The notes under the pieces are model-generated. The model ran no database searches. It was not told the DNA's origin and saw only the letters and a program-made list of their open reading frames with translations. DNA of 64,000 nt from a plasmid, in the sequence record NZ_CP019209.1; one strand, written 5' to 3'. Made by a program: the position numbers and the translations under genes. This document shows positions 2,317 through 63,257 of the stretch, piece by piece. Position 1 is the stretch's first letter. Each line of letters begins with the position of its first letter.

Positions 2317-3864
2317 TTAGTTACGAGAAAAATGTTGTTGTACATCCTTGTTCCAAGGCAACAGTTGATCTAAAGTTTCTGCTGAAAGTACGGGAAGATT
2401 TGGTATCTTATCAAATAGAAACTCTAGATACTTTACAGGATTCAATCCGTTAAGTTCTGCTGTTTTATATACACTCAGAATGATTCCTGAAGTTCGTGCT
2501 CCTTCAAGACTTGTGGAATGCAACCAATTTTTCCGTCCTATCACCAGCTCTTTGATATTTCGCTCCGCACGATTATTTGTGAGTTCTAAACGACCATCTT
2601 CAAAAATAGGTTCAAAACCACTTCGTAGTTTACACGCATATTGAACGGCTGCATCCAACTTGGATTTTGCAACAGGATCTATCGTTGCCATCCACTCATA
2701 AAAAGCAATAAATAATGGACGCAGTTCTTGTTGCCGACAGCTTAATCGCTTCTCAGGAGAAAAGTCTTTCCATTTCTTTTCTAGGACAAACCATTTATCC
2801 AATTGTTTGACTGCTTGAGCTGCGGGAATATCCGTGTTTTTCTTTCCTTTTGGAATTGCTTCGAAAAATTTCCGCCGAACATGCGCGAAACAATAGACAA
2901 GTCGTACACTTTCCACGGCATTATACCCGCTATAGCCGTCACAGTGTAAATACCCTGTAAACTCCTTGAGAAAAGTTTTCGGAACATCTCCAGCACGACT
3001 TTCGTCGTGGTGATAATAAACGATGGGATGCTGACTGTCTTTTCCTGTACAAAACTGCCAGTAATAGGTATCTGTTTTGGCACTTTCAATCACACGATAA
3101 CTTGTTTCATCCCCGTGTAGAATCTCTTCTTGATTAAGATAGACTCTTAATCGTTCTCCTAAAGGGTCTAACGCGTTTTGCACTGCTTTAATATGCCAAT
3201 TGGTGATATTATCTCTCGAAATATCCAACCCATGTGTTTGTTTCCAATAGTTCTCTTGCCGATAGGCAGGAACTTTCTGACCAAATTTCATCCGGATCGT
3301 TTCCGCCACTAAACTATTGGAACCTAAGCTATTAGAAATCAAAGGTTTAGGAACGATCGCTTTTTTAAAAGAAGAAAGTCCTTCTTTTTCGCAGCTTTTA
3401 CAACAATAGGTATGTTGATAATGGGTGAGACAATCCAACATAGCCTGATGGAAACGAATTTCTTCTCGTACTTTTGTCCGTCCGATATCTTTCATCTGTG
3501 AACCGCAATGTTCACAAAATTGTTCTTCCAAAGGAAGGAGATGTTCTTTCTCTGTTATAGGTAAGTGTTTGATTTTGTCTGCTTTCGTTCCTACAACTCG
3601 TTGATGTCCTTTTACTGGAATAATGGTGGCAGCTGCTTCTGGAACACTTACAGAAATTTCTTCATCACTAAAAAGATTCAATTGCCCATTCGTTTCCTCA
3701 AAGAGAGTCTCTTTAGAGCGTCCAAATAATTTGTTGGTTAAATAATTGACCTTTTCATTCAATAGTTGGATTTCAGTTGTAAGATTCTGAATGGTTTGTT
3801 GTTGTGCTTGATTGGTTTTATGGGCTTCTTGAAGCAACTGAAGCAACGTATCTGTAGTTTCCAA
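2317..3864 (-). CDS. IS66-family transposase TnpC
   Basis: 515 aa with an N-terminal coiled coil and zinc finger (CEHCG…CCKSCE), typical of IS66 TnpC. Confidence 0.85.
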   Translation of the reverse strand: METTDTLLQLLQEAHKTNQAQQQTIQNLTTEIQLLNEKVNYLTNKLFGRSKETLFEETNGQLNLFSDEEISVSVPEAAATIIPVKGHQRVVGTKADKIKHLPITEKEHLLPLEEQFCEHCGSQMKDIGRTKVREEIRFHQAMLDCLTHYQHTYCCKSCEKEGLSSFKKAIVPKPLISNSLGSNSLVAETIRMKFGQKVPAYRQENYWKQTHGLDISRDNITNWHIKAVQNALDPLGERLRVYLNQEEILHGDETSYRVIESAKTDTYYWQFCTGKDSQHPIVYYHHDESRAGDVPKTFLKEFTGYLHCDGYSGYNAVESVRLVYCFAHVRRKFFEAIPKGKKNTDIPAAQAVKQLDKWFVLEKKWKDFSPEKRLSCRQQELRPLFIAFYEWMATIDPVAKSKLDAAVQYACKLRSGFEPIFEDGRLELTNNRAERNIKELVIGRKNWLHSTSLEGARTSGIILSVYKTAELNGLNPVKYLEFLFDKIPNLPVLSAETLDQLLPWNKDVQQHFSRN

Positions 3865-12265: not shown

Positions 12266-13666
12266 ATGGAAACAATGAAAAGAAAATTCACCTTCCCACA
12301 TAGTTATACATTGATTTTTATCTTAATTATTTTGGCTGCAATTTTAACTTGGATAATTCCTAGTGGTCAGTTTGAGACAGTTGTTGAAAACGTCGCAGGT
12401 ATGGAAAAAACAACGGTTGTTCCGGGAACCTATCACCAAATCGATAAGGCAGATTATGGACAAGGTTTTTCCTCTATACTAATGGCACCAGCTGAAGGGA
12501 TTATTTCAGCTGTTGAGGTTGTTGCTTTTGTTCTCATCGTTGGTGGTGCCTTCGGGATTATCCTAAAAACGGGAGCCATCGATCGAGGGCTGTTTACCTT
12601 AGCAAAAGTTCTGGGAGACAAGGGGATCTTAGTTATTCCGATGTCGATGATTCTATTCAGCTTAGGAGGATCAACCTTTGGCATGAGCGAGGAAGTCATT
12701 CCCTTATTTGCGGTGTTTATTTCTCTGATGTTTTCTCTTGGCTATGATTCCATGACTGCGATCTTGATTCTATTTTTAAGTACACAAGCGGGATATGTTG
12801 GGTCGACGATTAATCCCTTCAACGTTTTAATCGCACAGGGAGTAGCTGGCGTTTACGGAAATCCCCTGCTTTGGTTTCGGATGCTATCCTGGATTGTCAT
12901 TACTGGGATTTCAATTGTTTTCACCATGCTTTATGCTAGCAGAGTCAAAAAGAATCCACTGTCCTCTATTGTTTATGAGAGTGATTTAAAGGTTAAGCAT
13001 AAGTTTCAAAATTTTGACACTGAAAAAGAGTTTTCAACACAAGATAAACTAATTATCGCCGGTTTTATCGTAGGTTTAGGAATCATGATTTGGGGTATCA
13101 TTTCCAAGGGATGGTATATGGTTGAAATTTCTGCACTATTCTTAGGATTAGGTCTTTTTGCTGGGGGCATCGCTAGATTTTCTCAAAAGGAAATTGCTGA
13201 AGCTTTTGTCGAAGGCTGTTCAGATTTCGCCTATGCTGCTGTAATCATTGGGCTAGCTAGAGGAGTCTTGGTAATCTTGGAAGGTGGAATGATTATTGAC
13301 ACTATTCTAAACAGCTTGGCTAACCTTTTAGGTGGTCTTCCAAAATTCCTGTTCACTACGATTCTACTCATTTCTCAAGTAATTGTTTCCTTTTTTGTTC
13401 CATCCTCCTCAGGAGCTGCGGCATTAACGATGCCGGTTATGGCACCATTGGGTGATCTAATGAATGTAAGTCGTGATGTTGTTGTTCTAAGTAACCAGTT
13501 TGGAAATGGTTTAATGAATATTATCTCCCCAACTAGTGGTGTATTACTGGCAGGATTAGCCATCGCAGAGATTAATTTCTCTAAATGGTTTAAGGTTGGC
13601 TTCAAAATATTTGCCATCTTAACCCTTGTTTCTGCTGTTTTGTTATACATTGCTACACTCTTTTAG
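12266..13666 (+). CDS. YfcC/DcuC-like polytopic membrane transporter
   Basis: 466 aa, highly hydrophobic with about 12 transmembrane segments. The architecture resembles YfcC-family transporters often found beside amidohydrolases. Confidence 0.55.
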   Translation: METMKRKFTFPHSYTLIFILIILAAILTWIIPSGQFETVVENVAGMEKTTVVPGTYHQIDKADYGQGFSSILMAPAEGIISAVEVVAFVLIVGGAFGIILKTGAIDRGLFTLAKVLGDKGILVIPMSMILFSLGGSTFGMSEEVIPLFAVFISLMFSLGYDSMTAILILFLSTQAGYVGSTINPFNVLIAQGVAGVYGNPLLWFRMLSWIVITGISIVFTMLYASRVKKNPLSSIVYESDLKVKHKFQNFDTEKEFSTQDKLIIAGFIVGLGIMIWGIISKGWYMVEISALFLGLGLFAGGIARFSQKEIAEAFVEGCSDFAYAAVIIGLARGVLVILEGGMIIDTILNSLANLLGGLPKFLFTTILLISQVIVSFFVPSSSGAAALTMPVMAPLGDLMNVSRDVVVLSNQFGNGLMNIISPTSGVLLAGLAIAEINFSKWFKVGFKIFAILTLVSAVLLYIATLF

Positions 13667-13698
13667 TCTTAATCATCCATTAATAGGAGGCAATAGTT

Positions 13699-13845
13699 AT
13701 GATTAAAATAAATCAATTAGCAGGAATGAATATCCACTATTTATTTTATTCTCTCAAAGAATTTTTCGCTTATCAACAGAAAATTGGTATTTCTTCTGTT
13801 GAACTTTGGGGAGGTGCTCCGCATTTTTTCATAGATGCTTTTACT
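13699..13845 (+). pseudogene. Sugar-phosphate isomerase/epimerase (xylose-isomerase-like TIM barrel, FrlC-like) N-terminal fragment, truncated by IS1216
   Basis: Good ribosome-binding site, then MIKINQLAGMNIHY…GISSVELWGGAPHFF… The ORF ends exactly where the IS6 inverted repeat GGTTCTGTTGCAAAG begins. Confidence 0.4.
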
Positions 13846-14654
13846 GGTTCTGTTGCAAAGTTTTAAATCTACTATCAAATAAGGTAGAATAATAGAAAAA
13901 GATAGCAGGAGGAATGACGATGAATCATTTTAAAGGAAAGCAATTTCAGCAGGATGTGATTATTGTAGCCGTGGGCTACTATCTTCGTTATAACCTTAGC
14001 TATCGTGAAGTTCGAGAAATCTTATATGATCGTGGCATTAACGTTTCTCATACGACGATTTATCGTTGGGTGTAAGAATATGGCAAACTACTCTATCAAA
14101 TTTGGAAAAAGAAAAATAAAAAATCCTTTTATTCATGGAAAATGGATGAAACGTACATCAAAATTAAAGGAAAATGGCATTATTTGTATCGAGCCATCGA
14201 TGCAGATGGTTTAACCTTGGATATTTGGTTACGTAAAAAACGGGACACACAAGCAGCCTATGCTTTTCTTAAGCGGTTAGTGAAGCAGTTTGATGAACCG
14301 AAGGTTGTAGTCACAGATAAAGCCCCCTCTATTACAAGTGCCTTTAAGAAACTAAAAGAATACGGCTTTTATCAAGGGACAGAACATCGTACCATTAAAT
14401 ACCTGAATAATTTGATTGAACAAGACCATCGTCCAGTAAAGAGACGCAATAAATTCTATCGAAGTTTACGCACTGCCTCTACCACGATTAAAGGCATGGA
14501 AGCCATCCGAGGATTATATAAGAAAACCCGAAAAGAAGGCACTCTCTTCGGGTTTTCGGTCTGTACTGAAATCAAGGTATTATTGGGAATCCAAGCTTAA
14601 ATCATAGATACCGTAAGGGACTTTATTCTTTATTTAAAACTTTGCAACAGAACC
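13846..14654 (+). mobile_element. IS6-family IS1216-like element, copy 1; transposase inactivated by a nonsense mutation
   Basis: Terminal inverted repeats GGTTCTGTTGCAAAGTTT…AAACTTTGCAACAGAACC. The transposase frame has a TAA at about 14073, where the intact copy 2 has CAA. Confidence 0.8.
13918..14600 (+). pseudogene. IS1216-like transposase with premature stop (Q to stop near codon 53)
   Basis: Identical to the 228-aa transposase of copy 2 apart from the TAA. The ORF track splits it into the 14005-14214 and 14142-14600 pieces. Confidence 0.75.
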
Positions 14655-14731: not shown

Positions 14732-15592
14732 ATGAACATTGAAAAATTTATTACGGCAAGAAAGGCTGCCAACTTATCTCAAAAAGAAGTGTCTGAAGGA
14801 ATTTGTACACAAGCAACATTAAGTAAATTTGAGAACAATGGTCAAGTCCCTTCGTTAAAAATTTTAATCAAATTATGTAATCGAATCAATCTTCCGTTAG
14901 TTGAACTTTTTTCTTCGATGAACGTGATCAATACACAACTTGATGAACAGCTAGAAAAAGCAGAGTTTTCACTGATTACGAGTGAATATGAACAATTGAC
15001 ACAGATTTTAGCAGCCATTGATCCCAAGGTAATTGACGAGTCTGAGCTGATTGCACGTTACTACTATCTAAAAGGATTTGAAATGATTTTTACGAATGCA
15101 CCAATTACGGATGTGTTGTTCCATTTTGATCAGTTGTTGATGGCAGAAACAGCCAACACGTTGTTTCGTTTATTGGCATATACAGGTATTGGAATGGTCT
15201 ATGCTAGAGAAAAAGAGTTGGAAAAAGCAGAAGTTTATTTCAATCGAGTGTTTGAAAAAATTTATACGTATCCGATTCGTACAACAGAAGATATCTGGCG
15301 GGTGTTAAATATCGTCTTTCATTGTGGTGTTTTTTTTGCGCAAGACGGTGATTTGGAAACAAGTGATGCACTACTAAATTACGCAATCGATATTTGTTCG
15401 GATAACCATTTGACTTATTACTTAGCACGAGCTGCTGCCCAATTAGCGAAGAACGCACAGGCTAAAAATAAGTCGAAGGCAGAAGTGCTCGAATTGATTC
15501 AAGATGCACTAGCTTTTGCTAAAATTAATAAAAACAAAAAATTAATTGATGAATTAAATCATATGAAAAAAATGATACTATTGATTAACTAA
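14732..15592 (+). CDS. Rgg/MutR/GadR-family transcriptional regulator (XRE HTH plus helical repeat domain)
   Basis: 286 aa with an N-terminal HTH (…LSQKEVSEGICTQATLSKFENNGQVPSLKILIKLCNRINLPLVELF…) and a C-terminal TPR-like domain typical of Rgg regulators. No convincing short hydrophobic peptide gene is nearby. Confidence 0.75.
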   Translation: MNIEKFITARKAANLSQKEVSEGICTQATLSKFENNGQVPSLKILIKLCNRINLPLVELFSSMNVINTQLDEQLEKAEFSLITSEYEQLTQILAAIDPKVIDESELIARYYYLKGFEMIFTNAPITDVLFHFDQLLMAETANTLFRLLAYTGIGMVYAREKELEKAEVYFNRVFEKIYTYPIRTTEDIWRVLNIVFHCGVFFAQDGDLETSDALLNYAIDICSDNHLTYYLARAAAQLAKNAQAKNKSKAEVLELIQDALAFAKINKNKKLIDELNHMKKMILLIN

Positions 15593-15794: not shown

Positions 15795-15850
15795 GAGGGA
15801 AATAAGCAACACACAAAAATGTGTTGTTTGTTTCCCTTATTTGTTTTTTT
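15795..15850 (+). terminator. Rho-independent terminator
   Basis: Imperfect hairpin GGGAAATAAGCAACACAC…GTGTTGTTTGTTTCCC followed by TTATTTGTTTTTTT. Confidence 0.4.
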
Positions 15851-15908
15851 ACAATATAAAATTTTATATTAAAATTACCTTATTATATAAAAAAATATAT
15901 AAAATCGG

Positions 15909-15943
15909 TTGACAAATAAATCTAGCAGGCGTATCATCTGGTT
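15909..15943 (+). promoter_or_regulatory. Candidate sigma-A promoter for the ApbE/FMN-reductase operon
   Basis: TTGACA, a 17-bp spacer, then TATCAT, about 100 bp upstream of the ApbE start. Confidence 0.35.
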
Positions 15944-16012
15944 GTGAAAACAGTAACAAAAATAAAAACTAATTACTCATGTAATCCGTAGTTCAAGTAA
16001 AGAAGGTACAAA

Positions 16013-16945
16013 ATGAATCAGGTGATCGAAGAAACGAAAATCTGGCAAATGATGGGGACAACAATTACATTACAAGTTGGGCATGAAGAGCCTAGTCGAT
16101 TACTAGCAGAGTTAGGCGAATGGTTGCACGTTTATGAACATCGCTTCAGCGCACATGATGCAACTTCTGAATTAATGGCCATCAATCAAGCTGCTGGACG
16201 ACAAGCTGTGATTGTACATCCTGAACTTTTTGAGCTCATCAAATTAGGAAAAGCACATAGTTGTGCAAGAAATAGTTATCTGAATATTGCTATTGGTCCG
16301 GTTGTACAAAAATGGCACATTGGATTTGAAGATGCATTGGTTCCAACAAAAGCAGAGATAACTGAGTTACTTCTGCTAACGGATCCACACCAAATTCAAT
16401 TAGATGAAAAAATGAAAACCGTTTTTTTAACCAAACCAGGAATGATGATTGACTTGGGGGCGTTAGCAAAAGGTTACATTGCAGATAAATTAATTACACA
16501 TTGCCGAGAGCGAAATGCAGCGTTTGCTTTAGTTAACTTAGGAGGAAATATCGTTGTTTTTGGTGAATCACCAAGACGTTCGGATGGTGCTTGGCGTATT
16601 GGTTTGCGAAATCCTAAAGGTTCACGTGAAGAGTCGCTTGCGGTGGTTAAACTAAACAACCAATCTTTAGTTACCTCTGGAATCTACGAACGTTATCTAC
16701 AAAATGGTTCGTCAGTGTATCATCACATCATTGATCCGAAAACTGGCTTTCCAGTTAAAAATGACGTAGCAAGCCTGACGATTTTGTCTGATTCTTCTGT
16801 AGATGGAGAAATCTGGACTACACGTTTATTTGGAGCATCTTCTTTAGAAGTGTTGAAAGCGCTTGAAGAACAGCCGGGTATCGAGGGAGCAGTTGTAACA
16901 AAAGAGAATCAATTCTTGTATACAAAAGGATTTGAAAAAATTTAG
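16013..16945 (+). CDS. ApbE-family FAD:protein FMN transferase, with no signal peptide (predicted cytoplasmic)
   Basis: 310 aa with the conserved ApbE motifs (…DLGALAKGYIADK…, …YHHIIDPKTG…). No lipobox or signal peptide at the N-terminus. Confidence 0.75.
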   Translation: MNQVIEETKIWQMMGTTITLQVGHEEPSRLLAELGEWLHVYEHRFSAHDATSELMAINQAAGRQAVIVHPELFELIKLGKAHSCARNSYLNIAIGPVVQKWHIGFEDALVPTKAEITELLLLTDPHQIQLDEKMKTVFLTKPGMMIDLGALAKGYIADKLITHCRERNAAFALVNLGGNIVVFGESPRRSDGAWRIGLRNPKGSREESLAVVKLNNQSLVTSGIYERYLQNGSSVYHHIIDPKTGFPVKNDVASLTILSDSSVDGEIWTTRLFGASSLEVLKALEEQPGIEGAVVTKENQFLYTKGFEKI

Positions 16946-16987
16946 TACGTGCGAACAGTCAGAAATCGATGTTAGAAAGGAAAGAGA

Positions 16988-17599
16988 ATGAAGATGAAAT
17001 TTATTGGATTAGTAGGAACAAATTCAACGCGGTCAACAAACCGTGAATTATTACAGTTTATGAAAAATTATTTTGTAAATGAGGCAGAAATCGAAATTGT
17101 CGAAATCAAGGAGCTGCCACTATTTAACAAACCTGAAAACACAGAACTACCAAATGTTGTTAAAGAAATTGCTGGAAAAATTGAACAAGCAGATGGCGTA
17201 ATCATCAGCACACCAGAGTATGACCATGCGGTTCCTGCTTCATTGATTAACGCATTAAATTGGCTTTCATATGGTATTTTTCCGTTTGTGGATAAACCAG
17301 TGATGATTACCGGAGCGTCTTATGGCACGTTAGGTTCTTCACGCGCACAAGCACATTTGCGCCAAATATTGGATTCACCAGAGTTAAAGGCACGAATTAT
17401 GCCAAGCTCAGAATTTTTATTGGGTCATTCACTCCAAGCCTTTGATGAGCAAGGACGACTCATTGATGAAGAACAAGTCGCAAAATTACGTGAACTATTC
17501 AAAGATTTCTTACTCTTTGTCACAATCACTAGTCAATTGCAACATGCGCACCAAGCAAATAAACGTGAAGCCGAAAGCTTTTCATGGGAAACGATTTAA
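16988..17599 (+). CDS. NADPH-dependent FMN reductase (flavodoxin-like fold)
   Basis: 203 aa (MKFIGLVGTNSTRSTNRELL…ISTPEYDHAVPASLINALNWLS…), the typical FMN_red / SsuE-like signature. Confidence 0.7.
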   Translation: MKMKFIGLVGTNSTRSTNRELLQFMKNYFVNEAEIEIVEIKELPLFNKPENTELPNVVKEIAGKIEQADGVIISTPEYDHAVPASLINALNWLSYGIFPFVDKPVMITGASYGTLGSSRAQAHLRQILDSPELKARIMPSSEFLLGHSLQAFDEQGRLIDEEQVAKLRELFKDFLLFVTITSQLQHAHQANKREAESFSWETI

Positions 17600-17618
17600 T
17601 CGAGGGGAGCAAACAAAG

Positions 17619-18839
17619 ATGAAATTAATAGGTATCGTCGGATCAGCAGCTGAACTTTCATATAACCGTAAATTATTAACATTTATCCAAAAACAATATC
17701 ATGAACTATTTAATTTAGAAATCATTGAAATCAAAGATTTACCTCTGTTCAATCAAGATGATGATCAAACAAATAGTCCTGCTATTCAACAGCTAAATCG
17801 CAAAATCTTAATGGCTGATGGGGTAATTATTGCTACGCCAGAACACAATCATACGGTTCCAGCAGGATTGAAAAGTGCACTTGAATGGCTATCATTTAAA
17901 ATCCATCCACTTGAAAATAAACCTGTAATGGTTGTGGGTGCTTCTTACTACGATCAAGGAACTTCACGCGCGCAATTACACTTGCGCCAAATTTTGGACG
18001 CACCAGGCGTGAATGCATTAGTGATGCCCGGAAATGAATTTTTATTGGGAAAAGCAAAAGAAGCATTTGACCAAGAAGATCGCTTGATTGATCCACGAAC
18101 TGTTGACTTTTTAGGCAGTACATTAGCAAGTTTTGTAAAATTCATTAAAGTCGTGTCTACCTTAGCAGGGCCTAAAAAGCTTCCACCAGAAGATTTGCAT
18201 GCGACAGGAACAATTGCTACGACAATACCCGATGTTGATATGTCAGATGATCATTGGTTGGAAAAAGCTTCTGAAGCAGTCGGTGCCGTTTCTGGAAATA
18301 CTTACGTCAAATTAAATCGTGGGTTATTGACAGTGGATCAAATCAATTACTTTTTAGATTCGATGCCGATGGAATTAACTTTTGCAGATAATAATAACCA
18401 ATTTTTATATTATAATTTGCGCCAAGAAGCGAAAGAGATGTTAGCTGCTCGTGTGCCCGGTCAGGTAGGGAATCCATTAGCCAACTGTCACCCAGAAAAA
18501 TCGTATAAAAATGTAGAGTGGGTAATTCAACAACTGCGAAGCGGAGCAACAGATGCGGTACGTGTTCATGTACCAAAACAAGTGCCAGAAAAATATATTG
18601 TGCATAATTACCAAGCAATGCATGATGAAAATGGAGAGTATGCTGGAATCAATGAATACATTCTTGATTTCAAACCAATCATTGAGTGGTATTTACAACA
18701 AACGGGTCAACAACTTGTTGGAAATGAAGATGCGGTTTCAAGTGCATCTGTTCATGGTGGAAAAACAGATGCAGTAACCAGCGCCAGCACACACGATGAA
18801 ACTGCAGTAGATGCAGTTTCGAGTGCTTCTGTAAAATAA
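17619..18839 (+). CDS. NADPH-dependent FMN reductase domain fused to a DUF438-like domain, with three tandem C-terminal DAV[ST]SAS motifs
   Basis: The N-terminal 180 aa are paralogous to the upstream FMN reductase. The C-terminal half has a DUF438-like CHP motif (…NCHPEKSYKNVEWV…). The last 45 aa read DAVSSASVHGGKTDAVTSASTHDETAVDAVSSASVK. True start taken at MKLIGIVGS (17619), not the extended ORF-track start at 17442. Confidence 0.6.
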   Translation: MKLIGIVGSAAELSYNRKLLTFIQKQYHELFNLEIIEIKDLPLFNQDDDQTNSPAIQQLNRKILMADGVIIATPEHNHTVPAGLKSALEWLSFKIHPLENKPVMVVGASYYDQGTSRAQLHLRQILDAPGVNALVMPGNEFLLGKAKEAFDQEDRLIDPRTVDFLGSTLASFVKFIKVVSTLAGPKKLPPEDLHATGTIATTIPDVDMSDDHWLEKASEAVGAVSGNTYVKLNRGLLTVDQINYFLDSMPMELTFADNNNQFLYYNLRQEAKEMLAARVPGQVGNPLANCHPEKSYKNVEWVIQQLRSGATDAVRVHVPKQVPEKYIVHNYQAMHDENGEYAGINEYILDFKPIIEWYLQQTGQQLVGNEDAVSSASVHGGKTDAVTSASTHDETAVDAVSSASVK

Positions 18840-18842
18840 AAA

Positions 18843-19651
18843 GGTTCTGTTGCAAAGTTTTAAATAAAGAATAAAGTCCCTTACGGTATCTATGATTTAA
18901 GCTGGGATTCCCAATAATACCTTGATTTCAGTACAGACCGAAAACCCGAAGAGAGTGCCTTCTTTTCGGGTTTTCTTATATAATCCTCGGATGGCTTCCA
19001 TGCCTTTAATCGTGGTAGAGGCAGTGCGTAAACTTCGATAGAATTTATTGCGTCTCTTTACTGGACGATGGTCTTGTTCAATCAAATTATTCAGGTATTT
19101 AATGGTACGATGTTCTGTCCCTTGATAAAAGCCGTATTCTTTTAGTTTCTTAAAGGCACTTGTAATAGAGGGGGCTTTATCTGTGACTACAACCTTCGGT
19201 TCATCAAACTGCTTCACTAACCGCTTAAGAAAAGCATAGGCTGCTTGTGTGTCCCGTTTTTTACGTAACCAAATATCCAAGGTTAAACCATCTGCATCGA
19301 TGGCTCGATACAAATAATGCCATTTTCCTTTAATTTTGATGTACGTTTCATCCATTTTCCATGAATAAAAGGATTTTTTATTTTTCTTTTTCCAAATTTG
19401 ATAGAGTAGTTTGCCATATTCTTGCACCCAACGATAAATCGTCGCATGAGAAACGTTAATGCCACGATCATATAAGATTTCTTGAACTTCACGATAGCTA
19501 AGGTTATAACGAAGATAGTAGCCCACGGCTACAATAATCACATCCTGCTGAAATTGCTTTCCTTTAAAATGATTCATCGTCATTCCTCCTGCTATCTTTT
19601 TCTATTATTCTACCTTATTTGATAGTAGATTTAAAACTTTGCAACAGAACC
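18843..19651 (-). mobile_element. IS1216-like IS6 element, copy 2 (intact)
   Basis: 809 bp with the same 18-bp inverted repeats and an intact 228-aa transposase. Confidence 0.85.
18897..19583 (-). CDS. IS6-family (IS1216) transposase
   Basis: 228 aa (MTMNHFKGKQFQQDVIIVAVGYYLRYNLSYREVQEILYDRG…), the canonical IS6 DDE transposase. Confidence 0.9.
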   Translation of the reverse strand: MTMNHFKGKQFQQDVIIVAVGYYLRYNLSYREVQEILYDRGINVSHATIYRWVQEYGKLLYQIWKKKNKKSFYSWKMDETYIKIKGKWHYLYRAIDADGLTLDIWLRKKRDTQAAYAFLKRLVKQFDEPKVVVTDKAPSITSAFKKLKEYGFYQGTEHRTIKYLNNLIEQDHRPVKRRNKFYRSLRTASTTIKGMEAIRGLYKKTRKEGTLFGFSVCTEIKVLLGIPA

Positions 19652-37436: not shown

Positions 37437-38244
37437 GGTTCTGTTGCAAAGTTTTCCAAAAAATCTATTTTAGTGTAAAATTGAGAAAAAAGACAGAGAG
37501 GACAGAGTAATGAATCATTTTAAAGGCAAACAATTCAAAAAAGACGTCATTATTGTCGCTGTTGGTTACTACCTGCGTTACAATCTAAGCTATCGTGAAG
37601 TTCAGGAATTGTGATATGATCGTGGAATAAATGTTTGTCATACTACGATTTATCGTTGGGTACAAGAGTACAGCAAAGTCCTCTATTATCTTTGGAAGAA
37701 GAAAAATAGACAATCCTTCTATTCATGGAAAATGGACGAAACCTATATCAAAATTAAGGGACGTTGGCATTATCTTTATCGTGCAATTGATGCGGACGGC
37801 TTAACCTTAGATATCTGGTTACGAAAGAAACGGGACACACAAGCAGCCTATGCTTTTCTTAAGCGGTTAGTGAAGCAGTTTGATGAACCGAAGGTTGTAG
37901 TCACAGATAAAGCCCCCTCTATTACAAGTGCCTTTAAGAAACTAAAAGAATACGGCTTTTATCAAGGGACAGAACATCGTACCATTAAATACCTGAATAA
38001 TTTGATTGAACAAGACCATCGTCCAGTAAAGAGACGCAATAAATTCTATCGAAGTTTACGCACTGCCTCTACCACGATTAAAGGCATGGAAGCCATTCGA
38101 GGATTATATAAGAAAACCCGAAAAGAAGGCACTCTCTTCGGGTTTTCGGTCTGTACTGAAATCAAGGTATTATTGGGAATCCCAGCTTAAATCATAGATA
38201 CCGTAAGGGATTTTATTCTTTATTTAAAACTTTGCAACAGAACC
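37437..38244 (+). mobile_element. Chimeric IS1216-like IS6 element, copy 3 (variant-B left part, variant-A right part; transposase has a nonsense mutation)
   Basis: The left 390 bp or so match variant B (as in copy 4, MNHFKGKQFKKDV…). The right 420 bp or so are identical to variant A (copies 1 and 2). The switch is near 37810-37830. A TGA replaces the TTA (Leu) codon at about 37613. Confidence 0.75.
37510..38190 (+). pseudogene. IS6 transposase, chimeric, with premature stop at codon about 35
   Basis: VQEL*YDRG here versus VQELLYDRG in copy 4. The ORF track reports only the 37732-38190 remainder. Confidence 0.7.
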
Positions 38245-62445: not shown

Positions 62446-63257
62446 GGTTCTGTTGCAAAGTTTTAAATAAAGAATAAAATCCCTTACGGTATCTATGATT
62501 TAAGCTGGGATTCCCAATAATACCTTGATTTCAGTACAGACCGAAAACCCGAAGAGAGTGCCTTCTTTTCGGGTTTTCTTATATAATCCTCGAATGGCTT
62601 CCATGCCTTTAATCGTGGTAGAGCCAGTGCGTAAACTTCGATAGAATTTATTGCGTCTCTTTACTGGACGATGGTCTTGTTCAATCAAATTATTCAGGTA
62701 TTTAATGGTACGATGTTCTGTCCCTTGATAAAAGCCGCCGTATTCTTTTAGTTTCTTAAAGGCACTTGTAATAGAGGGGGCTTTATCTGTGACTACAACC
62801 TTCGGTTCATCAAACTGCTTCACTAACCGCTTAAGAAAAGCATAGGCTGCTTGTGTGTCCCGTTTTTTACGTAACCAAATATCCAAGGTTAAACCATCTG
62901 CATCGATGGCTCGATACAAATAATGCCATTTTCCTTTAATTTTGATGTACGTTTCATCCATTTTCCATGAATAAAAGGATTTTTTATTTTTCTTTTTCCA
63001 AATTTGATAGAGTAGTTTGCCATATTCTTGCACCCAACGATAAATCGTCGTATGAGAAACGTTAATGCCACGATCATATAAGATTTCTTGAACTTCACGA
63101 TAGCTAAGGTTATAACGAAGATAGTAGCCCACGGCTACAATAATCACATCCTGCTGAAATTGCTTTCCTTTAAAATGATTCATCGTCATTCCTCCTGCTA
63201 TCTTTTTCTATTATTCTACCTTATTTGATAGTAGATTTAAAACTTTGCAACAGAACC
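62446..63257 (-). mobile_element. IS1216-like IS6 element, copy 6 (3-bp in-frame insertion in the transposase)
   Basis: Variant-A sequence with an extra GCC (KEYGGFYQG versus KEYGFYQG) and an A-to-G substitution. Inverted repeats intact. Confidence 0.85.
62500..63189 (-). CDS. IS6-family transposase (229 aa)
   Basis: Full-length ORF with a one-residue insertion relative to copy 2. Confidence 0.85.
   Translation of the reverse strand: MTMNHFKGKQFQQDVIIVAVGYYLRYNLSYREVQEILYDRGINVSHTTIYRWVQEYGKLLYQIWKKKNKKSFYSWKMDETYIKIKGKWHYLYRAIDADGLTLDIWLRKKRDTQAAYAFLKRLVKQFDEPKVVVTDKAPSITSAFKKLKEYGGFYQGTEHRTIKYLNNLIEQDHRPVKRRNKFYRSLRTGSTTIKGMEAIRGLYKKTRKEGTLFGFSVCTEIKVLLGIPA

Follow-up and report, generated by a model that had tools for sequence, protein, structure and literature searches.

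A 64-kb stretch of the plasmid record NZ_CP019209.1 (the window, to which all positions refer) was analysed around one gene, hereafter the fusion gene, whose product joins a flavin mononucleotide (FMN) reductase domain, FMN_red, to a PAS_10 domain and ends in a tail with three copies of the heptad D-A-V-[ST]-S-A-S. The fusion gene stands behind genes for ApbE, which is the flavin adenine dinucleotide (FAD):protein FMN transferase, and for a second, tail-less FMN_red protein (Table 1), and the three heptads are considered here as candidate sites of flavinylation by this ApbE. The 3 kb that hold these genes (15900-18900) are 100% identical to the corresponding sequence of NZ_CP025426 and of dozens more Enterococcus faecium plasmids of about 170-380 kb.

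Table 1. Features of the fusion gene locus, in window coordinates (IS, insertion sequence; pLDDT, predicted local distance difference test)
Feature	Position	Strand	Description
Left IS1216	13847..14647	+	99.5% identity to right copy, inverted orientation; plasmid annotation 'IS6-like element IS1216'
HTH_3 + TPR regulator, Rgg/XRE-like	14732..15592	+	by Pfam; upstream of ApbE in most of 80 loci
Terminator-like hairpin, 19 bp	15795-15838		before the promoter-like site; consensus scan only
Promoter-like site	15909..15937	+	TTGACA-17-TATCAT, 11/12, ahead of apbE; consensus scan only
ApbE (FAD:protein FMN transferase)	16013..16945	+	310 aa; Pfam ApbE 1.2e-72, whole model
Tail-less FMN_red paralogue, FRedA type	16988..17599	+	203 aa; Pfam FMN_red 2.9e-34; presumed heterodimer partner
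Fusion gene	17619..18839	+	406 aa; FMN_red (aa 1-183) + PAS_10 (aa 213-362) + tail; FRedB-PAS type; no signal peptide
Disordered C-terminal tail	18723..18836	+	aa 369-406, 38 residues, holds three motifs; pLDDT <50 (AlphaFold2)
Motif 1, DAVSSAS	18729..18749	+	aa 371-377; predicted FMN acceptor Ser377 (nt 18747-18749)
Motif 2, DAVTSAS	18768..18788	+	aa 384-390; predicted acceptor Ser390
Motif 3, DAVSSAS	18810..18830	+	aa 398-404; predicted acceptor Ser404, two residues short of the C-terminus
Right IS1216	18850..19650	-	intact 228-aa transposase; begins 11 nt past the fusion gene stop codon

On comparison with its relatives the fusion gene is best started at the ATG at 17619 (MKLIGIVG...), since all homologues begin there, and the TTG at 17442 that opens the longest open reading frame (ORF) was rejected on the same ground. 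Pfam comparison of the fusion protein returned FMN_red (PF03358; residues 1-147, E 7.7e-37), Flavodoxin_2 and PAS_10 (PF13596; residues 242-351, E 1.5e-30) and no other family. An earlier sequence-only reading of this DNA had named the second domain DUF438 (PF04282), and some sources still call the protein 'DUF438 domain-containing', but no Pfam match to DUF438 was obtained and the label was replaced by PAS_10. Neither an FMN_bind domain (PF04205) by Pfam nor a leader sequence was detected in the fusion protein. Among sequences in the PDB it matched ChrR/YieF (3svl; 3e-24) and the PAS_10 domain from SMU_1151c of S. mutans (2qkp; 4e-22). An AlphaFold2 model of the single chain, built from an alignment of 96 sequences, had high confidence in both the FMN_red (1-183) and the PAS (213-362) domains, while residues 369-406 had a pLDDT below 50, which places the motifs on a tail predicted to be disordered. 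The phosphate-binding loop is intact in the FMN_red domain of both the fusion protein and its tail-less paralogue, with S9, S14, N16 and R17 invariant or nearly so. Within PAS_10 (aa 257-292, window 18390-18500), residues D257, N259-N260-Q261-F262, Y264-Y265-N266 and H291-P292 are invariant and C290 nearly so, which suggests a conserved, putative ligand site in this domain; the L. lactis homologue has VHS in place of CHP.

The genes apbE, fredA (the tail-less FMN_red gene) and fredB-PAS_10-tail (the fusion gene) follow one another with gaps of 42 nt and 19 nt, and these short intergenic distances together with the promoter-like site ahead of apbE suggest a single operon. The fusion gene had been described as lying directly downstream of the ApbE gene; the tail-less FMN_red gene sits between the two, in the same predicted operon. 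The arrangement was compared across species in a scan of one genome per species, which found a relative of the fusion protein in 252 species, the best 80 loci being taken for locus comparison. ApbE lies within 6 kb of the fusion gene in 73 of these 80 loci, which bears out the proposed co-occurrence of tail and ApbE, and the usual order is regulator, ApbE, FMN_red A, fusion. The tail-less FMN_red protein has 47-49% identity to the N-terminal domain of the fusion protein; its gene directly precedes the fusion gene in every case, and the protein lacks the motif in all 80 loci. Its own C-terminus (window 17570-17599) holds a different conserved sequence, ..AENFSWE.., in almost all 80 species.

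The N-terminus of the window's ApbE, MNQVIEETKIWQMMGT, has no hydrophobic leader and no lipobox, and only 12 residues precede the conserved MGT strand. The same compact start was seen in all 73 operon-linked ApbE proteins, each of which begins within about 15 residues of the MGT strand and thereby leaves no room for a signal peptide. By sequence, no signal peptide, lipobox or hydrophobic N-terminus was found in ApbE, the tail-less FMN_red protein or the fusion protein. The leaderless ApbE is accordingly predicted to be cytoplasmic and to share that compartment with its substrate.

Repeated heptads in the tail and their conservation

The translated end of the fusion protein reads ...LVGNEDAVSSASVHGGKTDAVTSASTHDETAVDAVSSASVK*, and its final 38 residues are NEDAVSSASVHGGKTDAVTSASTHDETAVDAVSSASVK. 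All three DAV[ST]SAS motifs reported by the sequence-only reading were recovered in this tail, separated by 6-7 residues; the string it had quoted as the last 45 residues is 36 residues long. Each copy agrees with the ApbE target motif D-x-x-[ST]-G-A-[ST] at six of seven positions, Ser replacing Gly. When the window was scanned in six frames (ORFs of at least 60 codons) with the strict motif D-x-x-[ST]-[GS]-A-[ST], the three tail copies were the sole matches in 64 kb, and the motif does not recur there as a generic linker in unrelated proteins. In 200,000 shuffles of the tail three strict matches never arose, the expectation from the tail's own biased composition being 0.013, and a chance origin of the three motifs is excluded. 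The two DAVSSAS copies are encoded by GATGCGGTTTCAAGTGCATCT and GATGCAGTTTCGAGTGCTTCT, which differ at four synonymous positions. The repeat therefore appears to be held at the protein level through different synonymous codons, and a recent DNA duplication was rejected as the source of the copies for the same reason.

The tail was then followed through the family. A protein search gave 1,421 relatives of the fusion protein, and the best 120, inspected for domains and tail, all combine FMN_red with PAS_10; nearly all of them end in 2-4 motif copies, among which the canonical Gly is frequent, as in DAVSGAT and DAVSGAS. In the 80 species-level loci the strict motif occurs twice in 42, three times in 24, four times in 6 and once in 5. 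Two loci appeared to have no motif at all: one (L068) is a truncated contig and the other (L071) carries three ..VASAS variants. Homologues thus keep the tail, all 78 scorable species-level tails carrying 1-4 copies (mostly 2-3).

Tail statistics were drawn from the 195 motifs found in these 78 tails with the pattern D-x-x-[STA]-[GS]-A-[ST], which presets positions 1 (D), 6 (A) and 7 ([ST]) and leaves the other positions informative. Position 2 is mainly Ala and position 3 mainly Val. Position 5 is Gly in 98 motifs and Ser in 97; Ser at the Gly position is thus an ordinary variant of the family, and the description of the Ser-for-Gly copies as degenerate does not hold. The acceptor is Ser in 183 motifs and Thr in 12, and two positions past the acceptor Lys is the commonest residue (119/195). 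In the first motif of each tail position 5 is Gly in 42 species and Ser in 36, and Ser copies are found in first, middle and last place. In many species the tail has no Gly copy, as in the window protein and in L005 and L052. In 76 of 78 tails 1-4 residues separate the last motif from the C-terminus, whereas the linkers between motifs are unconserved in sequence and anything from 3 to 28 residues long. In the closest relatives (L001, L002, L004-L006) all three copies are retained.

A tail of this kind might also be a generic Ser/Ala-rich low-complexity linker, or a target of other modifications, for instance phosphorylation or glycosylation, with ApbE serving some other substrate. Its biased composition and its disorder would fit such a role. 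The heptad is conserved where the linkers are not, however, the copies use different synonymous codons, exact canonical ApbE motifs make up half of the orthologous copies, the window offers ApbE no other motif-bearing ORF, and flavinylation has been shown experimentally for the class (PMC11334425). We regard this explanation as very improbable.

The family has further variants in E. faecium: a second allele of the fusion gene, with about 84% identity, is present on other plasmids of this species (e.g., NZ_CP012461.1 and AP027228.1; H31, H32), and 31 records fall in the band of 80-90% identity to the fusion gene. Several family entries (clusters of P0121 and P0136) bear the legacy name 'Fumarate reductase flavoprotein subunit precursor'.

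Predicted flavinylation of the tail and the part it may play

Huang, Meheust, Barquera and Light (2024; mSystems, PMC11334425) mined GTDB for apbE-linked genes and described ApbE-associated Firmicute FMN_red proteins with C-terminal extensions that bear 'one to two' flavinylation motifs. Two of these proteins, WP_021723379.1 of L. lactis and WP_205872264.1 of L. taiwanensis, carried covalent flavin when co-expressed with their cognate ApbE, as seen by sodium dodecyl sulfate-polyacrylamide gel electrophoresis (SDS-PAGE) under ultraviolet (UV) light, and the covalent flavin was lost when the acceptor Ser/Thr was mutated to Ala (PMC11334425). AlphaFold models in the same study placed the L. lactis sites beside the canonical FMN pockets, and the tail was read as securing the cofactor; homodimers were modelled, and nothing is said of a PAS domain, of a paralogue without a tail, of a heterodimer or of a location in the cytosol (PMC11334425). 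The tailed, ApbE-linked FMN_red class is therefore one already published in 2024, and the window protein belongs to it. It has in common with that class the FMN_red domain, C-terminal D-x-x-[ST]-[GS]-A-[ST] motifs, a clustered apbE and a Firmicute (Enterococcus) host, and differs in having three motifs, each with Ser for Gly, as against the one to two of the paper.

A locus with the window's gene order is present on the L. lactis plasmid pGdh442, which encodes ApbE, a 202-aa FMN_red protein and a 403-aa FMN_red+PAS_10 protein. The latter has 55% identity to the window protein, with 97% of the query covered, and ends in ...VDATSGASSTSNTTIENETDATSGASSH, with two DATSGAS motifs. Being the sole motif-bearing FMN_red protein beside apbE in that locus, the pGdh442-type protein very probably represents, by elimination, the family tested by Huang et al., with the accession match unconfirmed: the 90% cluster of the pGdh442 fusion protein consists of L. 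lactis entries, and WP_021723379.1 is not among the accessions listed.

A second body of work concerns L. johnsonii, in which FRedA and FRedB, the products of tandem FMN_red paralogues, form an obligate heterodimer with two asymmetric FMN pockets (PMC4500961). This enzyme is an NADH (reduced nicotinamide adenine dinucleotide)-dependent flavin reductase that makes H2O2 (Hertzberger 2014; Valladares 2015, PMC4500961), and it binds FMN weakly, with a dissociation constant (KD) of about 2 uM and 0.58 FMN per dimer as purified (PMC4500961). LjPAS, a 28-kDa PAS_10 protein, slows FMN-dependent assembly, the one step affected, and the same paper notes that Lp2732 and EF1227 combine it with the reductase in one protein (PMC4500961). 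The window operon resembles this system in its two adjacent FMN_red paralogues and a PAS_10 module, which in the window is fused to the second paralogue; the comparison with LjPAS draws on its published description. In L. johnsonii, in contrast, LjPAS has a separate gene, neither ApbE nor covalent flavin was considered, and the proteins were obtained from E. coli without the cognate ApbE. LjPAS (T285_08005) is also labelled 'fumarate reductase flavoprotein subunit precursor', like members of the window protein's cluster. For the window operon, an A/B heterodimer with NADH-dependent, H2O2-forming activity is predicted from homology and the strictly conserved gene pairing. The analysis thus links the flavinylated FMN_red proteins of 2024 with the FRedA/B-LjPAS work of 2014-2015, and no cross-citation was found between the key texts of the two. 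A literature search on EF1227, EF1226, lp_2732 and later flavinylated PAS or FMN reductase proteins returned nothing beyond PMC11334425 and PMC4500961.

Conservation of the tail, linkage to ApbE and the Lactococcus experiments (PMC11334425) together support the proposal of the sequence-only reading that the tail motifs are ApbE flavinylation sites, a prediction as far as the window protein itself is concerned. We consider it likely that the operon's ApbE flavinylates one or more of the tail sites and that a site so modified serves the reductase. The leaderless ApbE would take FMN from FAD (with Mg2+) and attach it as a phosphoester to Ser377, Ser390 and Ser404, in each case the last Ser of D-A-V-[ST]-S-A-S. 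The 406-aa tailed subunit would pair with its tail-less paralogue to give a heterodimer of FRedA/B type with two FMN pockets at the interface, and the tethered FMNs would fold back into, or shuttle at, both pockets, by which a weakly bound, dissociable cofactor would become permanently attached. The operon would then encode a cytoplasmic flavin reductase, dependent on NADH or its phosphate (NAD(P)H), with covalently tethered FMN. Two motifs per tail, the modal number, would fit two pockets per heterodimer supplied from a single tailed subunit, and extra copies may be redundancy. Within this scheme we infer the use of all three Ser-for-Gly sites, the A/B heterodimerisation, the location of the flavin and the reaction, from NADH to O2 or another acceptor. 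The chances that all three tail sites are used appear evenly balanced, and those of the tethered FMN occupying the canonical pockets slightly less than even.

Several points weigh against this scheme. All three motifs of the window protein have Ser at the Gly position, and in the K. pneumoniae fumarate reductase a change of this Gly to Ala halved flavinylation (PMC12052999); Ser acceptors, moreover, were 10-55% less efficient than Thr with ApbE of the V. cholerae type (PMC12052999). Since Gly-position changes and Ser acceptors lower efficiency elsewhere, occupancy of the tail may be partial. The intact phosphate loops are built for a free phosphate monoester, which leaves the placement of tethered FMN in the canonical pockets unproven, and a motif number of 1-7 across the family is a mismatch to a fixed count of two pockets. 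The bridge to experiment has its own gap, in that WP_021723379.1 is not confirmed by accession as an FMN_red+PAS_10 protein of pGdh442 type and Huang et al. name no PAS domain.

The same efficiency data favour the alternative that modification reaches just one or two of the three motifs, the Ser-for-Gly copies being poor substrates, spacers or evolutionary remnants. A modal copy number of two in relatives and the 'one to two' motifs of Huang et al. (PMC11334425) agree with such partial use. Set against it are the parity of Ser and Gly at position 5, with Ser copies in every place along the tail, and the retention of all three copies in the closest relatives; and the species devoid of Gly copies imply that some Ser-containing (SSAS/TSAS-type) copies must work. 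Partial modification of this kind seems to us possible, at a rather low likelihood.

Both the terminal heptad and the cytoplasmic setting have precedents. ApbE needs no more than a 7-residue motif at the end of a protein (Tong et al. 2021, cited in PMC12052999), and ApbEs located in the cytoplasm are known, for example from K. pneumoniae (2025 review, PMC12052999). The cytoplasmic systems known, namely the soluble fumarate reductase of K. pneumoniae, the acrylate and cinnamate reductases of Vibrio and the trypanosomatid fumarate reductase (FRD) with a fused ApbE, have in common with the window operon a leaderless ApbE, a soluble cytoplasmic oxidoreductase and the same phosphoester chemistry and motif (PMC12052999); theirs, however, is one site per folded FMN_bind domain, whereas the family described here has 2-4 copies on a disordered tail by PAS_10 and no FMN_bind. 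Engineered 'flavin-tag' and 'flavin-fixing' proteins likewise use a terminal 7-residue motif, and FMN tethered beside a non-covalent FMN site turns a dissociable flavoprotein into a covalent one (PMC12052999); those are laboratory constructs, in contrast to the natural multi-copy version here. Multi-flavinylated extracytosolic proteins (Meheust 2021, Huang 2024) also carry several ApbE sites per polypeptide, but they are secreted and arrange folded FMN_bind domains, each with one site, in tandem as 'beads on a string', whereas the window protein lacks both signal peptide and FMN_bind. A cytoplasmic system of the predicted kind runs counter to the usual view, in which ApbE mainly prevents extracellular loss of flavin.

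Across the relatives the motif cluster trails PAS_10 and not FMN_red. Stand-alone PAS_10 proteins of 207-250 aa (one example in L074) end in 1-3 motifs. One locus (L085, 5044-6675) encodes ApbE and, 16 nt further on, a stand-alone PAS_10+tail protein of 224 aa; 3 kb downstream comes a pair of FMN_red genes, of which one is fused to PAS_10. Where a protein has two PAS_10 domains (P0042, 711 aa; the L039 protein, 3051-3593 region), a motif cluster stands behind each of them, with up to seven motifs per polypeptide. DUF438-hemerythrin-PAS_10 proteins, encoded in some related loci (L049, L050, L053, L075), have no tail. Together, these observations suggest that the flavinylation tail is tied to the PAS_10 module, on the evidence of domain order. 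A homology search with a stand-alone PAS_10 protein gave no Lactobacillus names among its matches. P0042 has an additional motif directly behind its FMN_red domain. In Streptococcus pseudoporcinus (L084, 5071-6939) the called genes encode an FMN_red protein of 200 aa, a fragment of FMN_red of 89 aa and a PAS_10+tail protein of 312 aa, which suggests a fusion gene broken by a frameshift and no genuine stand-alone PAS protein.

This distribution of the tail is what would be expected if the tail were flavinylated and its FMNs were mobile flavin substrates or electron carriers ('swinging arms') that PAS_10 shows to FMN_red sites keeping their own non-covalent FMN, or if they were docked in PAS_10 as a redox sensor. 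The motif copy number of 1-7 and the FMN phosphate loops kept in both subunits are consistent with such mobility, as are the activity of the L. johnsonii enzyme as an NADH-dependent flavin reductase and the restriction of the LjPAS effect to the FMN-dependent assembly step (PMC4500961). The placement of the L. lactis sites by the canonical FMN pockets in the models of Huang et al. (PMC11334425) speaks against it. The tail-less DUF438-hemerythrin-PAS_10 proteins, moreover, share the NNQF..YYN and HP-type motifs of the fusion protein's PAS_10, from which it follows that the PAS pocket is not specific to a tethered flavin. We hold mobile or sensor-bound FMN to be rather unlikely compared with flavins that serve the reductase as its own cofactor.

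A broader form of the carrier idea, which we put forward with equal reserve and as a doubtful proposition, is that 'PAS_10 + flavinylated tail' would be a portable module, a cytoplasmic flavin carrier loosely like the swinging arms of acyl carrier protein (ACP) or of lipoyl domains, whose tethered FMNs would be passed to, or cycled through, the two FRedA/B pockets. The module would exist in fused form (the window protein, EF1227, Lp2732), in stand-alone form (LjPAS-like, 207-250 aa) and in tandem (P0042, L039). Were this so, LjPAS would so far have been studied only in its unmodified state, made in E. coli without a cytoplasmic ApbE, and ApbE would, by flavinylation, govern how much H2O2 lactic acid bacteria produce and how much oxygen they consume. 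Irrespective of the scheme, tethered flavins could, if they control NADH oxidase activity and H2O2 output, matter for the oxygen tolerance of enterococci and for their colonisation of the gut.

IS1216 copies and suggested mobility of the operon

The segment 14655-18842 (4.19 kb), which holds the regulator, apbE, fredA and fredB/PAS genes, is 99.3% identical to the chromosome of E. thailandicus (L001) and has an inverted IS1216 copy on both sides. From this identity and from the bracketing IS1216 copies the operon appears to have been captured onto an E. faecium megaplasmid as an IS1216-flanked, composite-transposon-like unit. The identity to E. thailandicus stops 3 nt past the stop codon of the fusion gene, so that any native terminator would have been lost. 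Flanked in this way by IS1216 and found on megaplasmids of many clinical E. faecium isolates, the operon is suggested to be mobile.

The transposase of the left IS1216 (13914-14600) is split into two ORFs of 53 aa and 152 aa, as against the intact 228 aa, and this copy is probably frameshifted. Two more IS1216-like copies lie in the window at 37510-38237 (91.5% identity to the 18850-19650 copy) and 62453-63256 (99.1%). A DcuC-family C4-dicarboxylate carrier gene (12266-13666; 466 aa, Pfam 2e-112) was weighed as a part of the system and rejected, as it lies outside the IS-bounded segment and occurs in none of the 80 loci. Together with a short ORF that abuts the left IS1216, it occupies 12266-13866, just outside the IS-bounded module.

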